From the IMG/VR virus record IMGVR_UViG_2690316311_000023: DNA of 4,126 nt; one strand, given 5' to 3'. Every line of letters begins with the position of its first letter. Positions within the stretch are counted from its first letter, which is position 1. Made by a program: the position numbers and the translations under genes. The DNA comes from a virus (lineage: Duplodnaviria > Heunggongvirae > Uroviricota > Caudoviricetes). The notes under the pieces are model-generated. The model was given only the letters and a program-made list of their open reading frames with translations, ran no database searches and was not told the DNA's origin. Shown piece after piece: positions 3,212 to 4,126 of this stretch.

Positions 3212-3490
3212 TCATTTTTCCTCTTTTGGTTTATGAATCTGAATGGTCATGCCGCTTTGAGTGGTGACTACAATGACATAACCAGGCTGAAGACTGTTAA
3301 GATTGAATGCTTCGTAAAACGAATCCAAGGCCAGCGCTTTTTTATTCTTTCGGTTCCACCAACGCCATCCCTTGCTACAGGCTACACTGACAATCCACTG
3401 CCCACTCCTGTAAGCCATATAAAACCAGATGAGCAAAACCTGAAGGAATGCTATCCAGTCAATAATCGTATATTTCGCGAAGGAGTCCAT
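3212..3490 (-). CDS. Hypothetical small single-pass membrane protein (about 92 aa)
   Basis: Track ORF 3212..3493 begins at a GTG. The ATG at 3488-3490 is preceded by AGGAGG 7 nt upstream and overlaps the upstream TGA stop (TGATG), indicating translational coupling. N-terminal hydrophobic segment YTIIDWIAFLQVLLIWFYMAY, followed by a basic patch (KGWRWWNRKNKK). Confidence 0.55.
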   Translation of the reverse strand: MDSFAKYTIIDWIAFLQVLLIWFYMAYRSGQWIVSVACSKGWRWWNRKNKKALALDSFYEAFNLNSLQPGYVIVVTTQSGMTIQIHKPKEEK

Positions 3491-3975
3491 CACTTCACCT
3501 CCTGCTGCGGTGCTGCTGGCATTTCACGCCAGTGCGTAACTGAGTGCGGATCCGGATATTCGGTGCCATCATCCCAGCGATTGCCATTCCACATTGCAGA
3601 CCACATCTCACCGTCTTCATACATGACCATTACCGGAATTAACTTATCCGGCATTCGCTCACTACAGCATATCCAACCATCCGGAGTTACCGGAGAGTTG
3701 CCCGATAGCGCATTACGCAATCGCTCCAGCTTCACGTATTCCTGAACCCTGTTTCCGTCGCATGCCTGAAGCCATTGCGCAGCCTTTTGCGCATCAGTGT
3801 GAAAGGCACAAGTGCGACCGTCATCAAATTGCATTTCGTAGAGGTCAGCAACTTGTTCAAACTGCGTATGTTGTGACTTGTAAGTTTGGCTTACAGGTTC
3901 GGCACCATGAAGCATGGCGGCGCGGAGTTTCTGTATCTCCCGTGCCATTATTGCGGCCTGACGAGGAGTGAACAT
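3490..3975 (-). CDS. DUF551 domain-containing phage protein (161 aa)
   Basis: The C-terminal region (DGWICCSERMPDKLIPVMVMYEDGEMWSAMWNGNRW...VTHWREMPAAP) matches the DUF551 signature I recall (W-I...E-R-L-P ... V-T-H-W-M-P-L-P-x-P-P), which is common in enterobacterial prophage early regions. The start is uncertain: the Shine-Dalgarno is poorly spaced and an IS junction lies 25 bp upstream. Confidence 0.7.
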   Translation of the reverse strand: MFTPRQAAIMAREIQKLRAAMLHGAEPVSQTYKSQHTQFEQVADLYEMQFDDGRTCAFHTDAQKAAQWLQACDGNRVQEYVKLERLRNALSGNSPVTPDGWICCSERMPDKLIPVMVMYEDGEMWSAMWNGNRWDDGTEYPDPHSVTHWREMPAAPQQEVK

Positions 3976-3999
3976 ATCACCTGCAATAATTCTGTTTAG

Positions 4000-4126
4000 T
4001 GAGGTAGCCTGAGTTTAACGGACACTCCTTCCTGAAATAGAATGGCATCAGAAGGAGCTAATAATGAGCAGAAAAACCCAACGTTACTCTAAAGAGTTCA
4101 AAGCCGAAGCTGTCAGAACGGTTCTT
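4000..4126 (+). mobile_element. Left end of an IS3-family insertion sequence (IS600-like), running off the window
   Basis: A terminal inverted-repeat-like sequence begins TGAGGTAGCCTGAGTTTAACGGACAC at about 4000; the 5'-TG terminus is typical of IS3-family ends. OrfA starts 64 bp inside. The boundary is approximate, within a few bp. Confidence 0.65.
4064..4126 (+). CDS. IS3-family transposase OrfA, N-terminal fragment (partial, continues beyond the window)
   Basis: ATG at 4064 with AAGGAG 6 nt upstream. Translation MSRKTQRYSKEFKAEAVRTVL matches my recollection of IS3-family OrfA N-termini (helix-turn-helix region), IS600-like. Confidence 0.7.
   Translation, partial: MSRKTQRYSKEFKAEAVRTVL

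Follow-up and report, generated by a model that had tools for sequence, protein, structure and literature searches.

An IS600 insertion truncates a DUF551 gene upstream of a conserved DUF4752 gene in a defective O26-type lambdoid prophage

Insertion of IS600 after codon 27 very probably turned a DUF551 gene of a decaying O26-type prophage into a pseudogene. The event is of an ordinary, already understood kind, namely IS600 pseudogenization in a decaying prophage whose integrase had already been inactivated. The window, i.e. the whole stretch of 4,126 nucleotides analyzed here, is a complete draft contig (JXVR01000131.1, assembly GCA_000948745.1) in reverse complement. Its positions 1-4000 were 100% identical, with 0 mismatches, to the IS-free locus of Escherichia coli O26:H11 strain 11368, and the remaining positions belong to the insertion sequence. 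The contig breaks inside a multicopy IS, which is the pattern that assemblers leave at repeats; because it stops inside IS600, the other end of the IS, the 5′ fragment of the gene and the target duplication are out of view.

The window comes from a defective lambdoid prophage of O26:H11-type E. coli, in which it covers the integrase-proximal end of the early-left operon (exo-xis type). On the minus strand, the genes follow in the direction of transcription as DUF551, DUF4752, two small hypothetical genes (2755-3066, phrog_3680; 2552-2734, phrog_676), a torI/excisionase-type gene (2294-2494) and a split tyrosine integrase (840-2057). The torI assignment comes from the RefSeq annotation of the identical O26 locus and from matches to the excisionase regions of Sf6 and Kapi1. 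The integrase is a pseudogene with an internal stop (TAA at 1365-1367), noted by RefSeq as 'internal stop', and it is divided into two ORFs that carry the Pfam domains Arm-DNA-bind_3/Phage_int_M and Phage_integrase. On a 545-kb contig of a related strain, the whole arm could be read as cII, cro, cI, N, cIII, kil, erf, abc2, Ead/Ea22, the 205-aa gene, DUF551, DUF4752, xis and int.

Several further features of this end of the prophage were observed. The integrase pseudogene and torI/xis adjoin on the same strand (840-2494), whereas int and xis lie at opposite prophage ends in KplE1-type prophages. In the record of phage Kapi1, the match begins at about window position 2205, and an integration-recombination site is marked within the matched stretch. 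The window may thus preserve an int-attP-xis junction in its phage form, such as a tandem or rearranged prophage would have. A tRNA scan of the window gave 0 tRNAs, and no att-site tRNA was identified. A strong terminator-like hairpin at 2538-2568 (minus strand; GCCGCC-TGAT-GGCGG, then TTTTTTATT) overlaps the stop of the 55/60-aa gene at 2552-2734, upstream of torI, and two more terminator-like sites (3073-3092 and 3103-3124, minus strand) lie between DUF4752 and the next gene. Past the 3′ end of the integrase, positions 1-840 are AT-rich and look non-coding, with a hairpin at about 150-176 (GCCTCCAC-TATA-TGTGGAGGC) preceded by an A-run. Beyond the equivalent region in O26 strain 11368 lie a gene for a PapB/FocB-family regulator and a frameshifted IS3-family transposase.

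The preliminary description of this DNA had placed an IS3-family insertion 25 bp upstream of the DUF551 start. The family was confirmed and the element can be named: window 4000-4126 (plus strand) is the left end of IS600, identical at 127 of 127 nucleotides to bases 1-127 of a complete 1264-bp copy, and RefSeq labels the same sequence 'IS3-like element IS600 family transposase'. It opens with a terminal inverted repeat, TGAGGTAGCC..., that starts with TG as in IS600 and the IS3 family. The orfA gene starts at 4064 (plus strand) and reads away from DUF551. Its 21 codons in the window matched HTH_Tnp_1 (E = 4.9e-4) at 20.7 bits, under the cut-off of 24.1 as the sequence is cut off, and full orfAB is present in identical IS600 copies elsewhere. 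The distance of 25 bp holds for the first remaining ATG; the native start, however, lies farther up, and the IS interrupts the gene itself.

In the IS-free locus of O26:H11 11368, the DUF551 gene encodes 195 amino acids (WP_000156090.1; the protein begins MTISTKKPLYAEVHNVPDDYEFTDEEL/NRIIAGDM..., also given as MTISTKKPLYAEVHNVPDDYEFTDEELNRIIAGDMFTPRQ..., the slash being ours), and its start codon and the stop of the preceding 205-aa gene share bases as ATGA. In the alignment, homology to the native gene ends at window 4000, where the IS600 terminus begins. The window copy is retained from codon 27 (CTA, 3997-3999) onward, and codons 1-26 are gone together with the native start. Native codons 27-34 (LNRIIAGD) occupy 3976-3999 on the minus strand. 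They are followed by the 5′-truncated remnant (3490-3975, minus strand; 161 codons and a stop), whose ATG at 3975 is the internal Met35 of the 195-aa protein. This comparison, which had been proposed as a check, bears out the earlier suggestion that the IS truncated the native 5′ end. The 195-aa form was present on at least 999 contigs, and homologues starting at the same Met were not found among the 120 listed, in which all complete (non-partial) forms were longer than 161 aa. Residues 1-56 of the 195-aa protein match the PHROGs profile phrog_31417 from profile position 1 (E = 1.2e-38); therefore, the missing N-terminus is a conserved module. The DUF551 domain itself is retained at 3505-3678 (minus strand; remnant residues 100-157), with a Pfam match to PF04448 at E = 2.2e-17 and 64.1 bits against a cut-off of 22.

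Two smaller points made earlier about the start of the remnant also hold. The frame stays open upstream of ATG 3975, across the junction, to a TAA at 4015-4017 (a stop followed by TQATSLNRIIAGDM...), and between these two positions no ATG, GTG or TTG was found in the DUF551 frame. The Shine-Dalgarno sequence of ATG 3975 is indeed poorly spaced, with AGGTG only 2 nt before the ATG.

IS600 was found to have entered this gene repeatedly. By following contigs with an identical or near-identical 161-aa product, we found other junctions, and altogether four independent insertions, each from a different assembly, were verified by sequence; all fall within the first 80 nt of the DUF551 gene, and both orientations occur. 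In one allele (L090/L091), the insertion lies at gene nt 19-20, with the IS in the same orientation as the gene and the junction at the start of the contig, where it gives a TTG-start hybrid ORF (MPVHLKPLY...). Another allele (L003) carries a complete 1264-bp IS600 at gene nt 35-37 in the same orientation, flanked by an AGG duplication (8632-8668 and 9933-10000 of that locus). The third allele (L007) is interrupted at gene nt 61 in the opposite orientation, again at the start of a contig, and the window allele at gene nt 79, also in the opposite orientation (window 3976-4000). Many 'partial' proteins begin at residue 2, 3, 4, 18 or 46 at contig ends. These may represent further insertion alleles, although a contig end alone is no proof of an IS.

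Some observations on these and related loci stand apart from the count of four. Further contig breaks occur at gene nt 6, 22 and 51. In positions 1-160 of L090 (RRJG01000064.1; protein P0007), the right end of IS600 supplies an in-frame TTG, which yields a 194-aa hybrid DUF551 protein (MPVHLK-PLYAEV...); unlike the window allele, this hybrid could be expressed from IS read-through. In the complete genome of strain 6817 (NZ_CP075003.1, locus L002), the same prophage arm has three IS600 copies within about 6 kb (6769-8032, 10034-11297 and 11544 onward), which disrupt genes of the erf and Ea22 regions, and clean GCC and TAC duplications flank the two complete copies.

Under a uniform insertion model, far fewer than four independent events would be expected in a stretch of about 60 nt. 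GCTGAGG directly precedes the IS in L003, giving TGAGG-TGAGG, and this target resembles the IS terminus TGAGG. The element IS911 is targeted next to terminus-like sequence. By analogy, the L003 site hints that IS600 may also be targeted beside sequences that resemble its own terminus. It is possible, though doubtful, that the first 80 nt are a true IS600 hot spot, owing either to terminus-like sequences or to selection for disruption of the early-left operon, and that, separately, the invariant DUF4752 protein works with any upstream hypervariable DUF551 protein as a two-part phage accessory system. The few papers that we consulted make no mention of at least four independent IS600 insertions clustered within 80 nt.

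IS600 insertional polymorphism is familiar from EHEC and Shigella prophages, and insertions inside O26 prophages have already been reported, e.g. upstream of q in an Stx1a phage (PMC10042803). The case described here shares with it the same element, TG-ended inverted repeats, orfA/orfB with a programmed frameshift and, in the copies with both ends visible, 3-bp duplications. It differs in that the window site was found in none of the complete genomes searched. In exact-junction searches, the observed junction was absent from 5,426 complete E. coli genomes, the GTDB species representatives and IMG/VR. Since 3-bp target duplications were seen at three other IS600 copies (GCC, TAC and AGG), CTA (3997-3999) is predicted to be the duplication of the window insertion. 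The predicted reciprocal junction is ...GACGAGGAACTA/TGAGGTGTACTGG..., also written ...TTCACTGACGAGGAACTA/TGAGGTGTACTGGCAATAGCGG..., and an exact-junction search gave no match to it in IMG/VR.

Only one junction is visible and the window is the whole contig, so that the 5′ part of the gene, and possibly more upstream genes, might instead have been removed by an IS600-mediated deletion or rearrangement, either through recombination between nearby IS600 copies or through the IS-excision enhancer IEE. The presence of three IS600 copies within 6 kb of the prophage arm in a related strain is in keeping with such an event, and both IS-associated deletions and IEE-mediated IS excision have been reported in STEC. 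However, in L003, the one allele of this gene with both ends in view, the event was a clean 1264-bp insertion with a 3-bp duplication and intact upstream genes. We therefore consider a deletion unlikely.

A simple insertion is the most probable course of events. In the intact prophage, three genes are chained by overlaps, with the 205-aa gene joined through ATGA to the 195-aa DUF551 gene, and the latter through TGATG to the 92-aa gene of the putative membrane protein DUF4752. IS600 very probably transposed into the middle gene after codon 27, in the orientation opposite to it. The window copy has lost its start codon and 26 codons, along with its predicted translational coupling to the gene before it, and the remnant would now be cut off from the operon promoter by an antisense IS of 1.26 kb. 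The remnant is a pseudogene with the internal Met35 as its first usable start, whereas the DUF4752 gene remains intact with its own strong Shine-Dalgarno sequence.

It had also been suggested that expression could now depend on IS-derived signals. This idea found no support in our scans. The only promoter-like site was that at 4015-4043 (plus strand), which is IS600's own and faces inward; on the gene's strand, simple consensus scans revealed no promoter in window 3000-4126 or in the full IS600 copy. The antisense strand of IS600 also has two weak hairpins that resemble terminators. Elements of the IS3 family carry an outward -35 element at the right end, not at the left end, and it is the left end that abuts the gene here. 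Because the IS is antisense and no promoter-like site was found on the gene's strand, we infer that the remnant and the downstream genes are poorly transcribed or not transcribed. The remnant would then be poorly expressed or silent, and the insertion would be polar on DUF4752 and the genes beyond.

Alternatively, the remnant might still be expressed as a shortened, functional DUF551 protein from Met35, by read-through or from a weak promoter in the IS or at the junction, so that DUF551(35-195) and DUF4752 continue to operate. The frame is open and still contains the middle region and the complete DUF551 domain, and DUF4752 retains AGGAGG at ideal spacing. However, the misplaced AGGTG, the lack of a promoter-like site on that strand and the two hairpins in the antisense strand of the IS all speak against it. 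In addition, the lost part belongs to the conserved 56-residue N-terminal module, and the prophage was already decaying. This alternative seems about as improbable as a deletion.

It is very improbable that the junction is an assembly artefact, i.e. a chimeric contig end at a repeat. The contig does stop 127 nt into a multicopy IS, as k-mer overlap predicts, but the same contig was recorded in 2 samples, the break coincides exactly with the IS terminus TG, and the other alleles add three clean junctions of this gene with IS600. Finally, the open frame has its first start codon at ATG 3975, but the idea that this ATG is native, with the IS in intergenic DNA and nothing truncated, can be dismissed given the lengths of the complete homologues listed and the identical IS-free locus, which codes for 78 bases more, up to the ATG that overlaps the upstream stop.

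The gene beyond the remnant is intact in the window. The DUF4752 gene (3212-3490, minus strand; ATG at 3490) encodes 92 aa and matches PF15944 at E = 1.4e-35 and 121.6 bits against a Pfam gathering score of 27. The overlap reported for the two genes was verified: the TGA stop of DUF551 (3492-3490) shares one base with the ATG (3490-3488) in TGATG, and AGGAGG (3498-3503, minus strand) lies within the last DUF551 codons (QQEVK), 7 nt before the ATG. The protein has one hydrophobic segment at residues 8-26, with a 19-residue Kyte-Doolittle mean of 1.78, followed by RWWNRKNKK. In the 29%-identical DUF4752 protein of phage SPN1S, the corresponding mean is 2.14, and hydropathy indicates that the N-terminal segment and the basic cluster are kept. 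These features suggest a single-pass inner-membrane protein with a cytoplasmic C-terminal domain. DUF4752 is 95-100% identical across many lambdoid, P22-like and Stx phages. No paper naming the family was found in a search of the literature.

We surveyed the surroundings of DUF4752 in IMG/VR, where 80 loci carried it at 96-100% identity; an upstream ORF could be identified in 72 of them, and these comprised 63 distinct sequences. Stop and start overlapped by 1 nt (TGATG) in 67 of the 72 loci and by 4 nt in five. In 69 of the 72, a DUF551 domain formed the end of the upstream protein. The other three upstream proteins, two Lar-like and one unknown, nevertheless have ...PQEVK or ...AQEVK at their ends, and it is these codons that contain the Shine-Dalgarno sequence. 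When the loci were anchored at the DUF4752 ATG, mean pairwise nucleotide identity was about 0.3 in the DUF551 body, 0.65 at -30 to -16 and 0.88 at -15 to -1; it stayed at 0.8-0.9 through DUF4752 and dropped past its stop. In 68 distinct phage loci, the conserved block began about 30 nt before the DUF4752 ATG. DUF4752 and its ribosome-binding site are thus a separate mosaic module, sharply bounded and nearly invariant, beside a hypervariable DUF551 module. A sharp mosaic recombination boundary was observed across the 80 loci inside coding sequence, at window 3460-3520, where unrelated upstream proteins, including a Lar-like restriction-alleviation protein, end in ...PQEVK.

The preliminary description took the two genes for a functional pair. 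The adjacency in 69 of 72 loci and the TGATG overlap in 67 of 72 favor this reading, and the arrangement is conserved within enterobacterial lambdoid phages. On the other hand, overlapping stops and starts are general in the operon, as at the junction of the 205-aa gene with DUF551, and DUF4752 is a module of its own. In SPN1S, moreover, DUF4752 follows a 201-aa protein with no DUF551 match and no Pfam hit. DUF551 is also far commoner than DUF4752 (4682 matches vs 57 phage records). Neither linkage at large evolutionary distance nor co-variation of the partners was seen, given the SPN1S neighbor and a near-invariant DUF4752 beside varying DUF551 bodies. The evidence from sequence would fit a functional partnership and an inherited module order alike.

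Both protein families have already been catalogued, though they are uncharacterized. DUF551 is a portable C-terminal domain found in mosaic architectures (PMC10834534, PMC4776307). Among the proteins that carry it is the Ea22 V2 variant of Stx phages, and Ea22 favors lysogeny (PMC10834534). YfdS of prophage CPS-53 (CPS-53/KplE1) carries it as well; deletion of yfdS causes sensitivity to H2O2, and overexpression of yfdQRST inhibits replication initiation (PMC4776307). The window protein resembles YfdS and Ea22 V2 in having a C-terminal DUF551 domain above the Pfam cut-off and in its place in an early-left region of the exo-xis type. It differs in that it is without the PF13935 coiled-coil region, has the N-terminal module phrog_31417 and is encoded by a truncated gene. 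Since a Pfam scan of the 161-aa remnant gave no match to Ead_Ea22 (PF13935), the window protein was rejected as an Ea22 variant; other DUF551 proteins upstream of DUF4752 do carry PF13935. We also rejected the upstream 205-aa protein as a DUF551 paralogue (BLASTP E = 6.3), despite shared matches to the broad phrog_60.

ORF7 of ST104 and gp31 of HK106, both DUF4752 proteins, are 92 aa long and occupy the same place just downstream of a gene ending in DUF551, with no structural difference from the window gene. The junction also resembles those of translationally coupled phage early genes in its 1-nt TGATG overlap, the Shine-Dalgarno sequence inside the upstream coding sequence and the overlaps at neighboring junctions. 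It differs from them in that coupling here is deduced from the sequence and in that the DUF4752 module, with its ribosome-binding site, is exchanged independently of the upstream body. An AlphaFold2 model built on a 36-sequence alignment had a mean pLDDT of 54.7, with only the DUF551 domain at 70-86. A Foldseek search against the PDB returned nothing at E < 0.1, the best matches being small beta folds of the Tudor, Sm or PUR-like kind at TM ~0.2, and at the sequence level the 195-aa protein had no more than a chance match in the PDB (E = 0.56). The native proteins would be accessory early-left proteins of host takeover or lysogeny, of which the DUF551 protein is probably soluble and the DUF4752 protein probably anchored in the inner membrane.

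For annotation, the finding means that the 161-aa 'DUF551 protein', called on the window contig and at least 13 further contigs, is the remnant of a pseudogene and no short isoform, and that IS600 causes the contig breaks at the DUF551 position in O26-type draft genomes. Lineages could be marked by the recurrent insertions, in the manner of IS-printing. If the targeting is true, the start of this gene would offer a compact natural substrate for the study of target choice in the IS3 family. The conserved DUF551-DUF4752 arrangement is a modest lead for the uncharacterized accessory genes of the exo-xis region in lambdoid and Stx phages.
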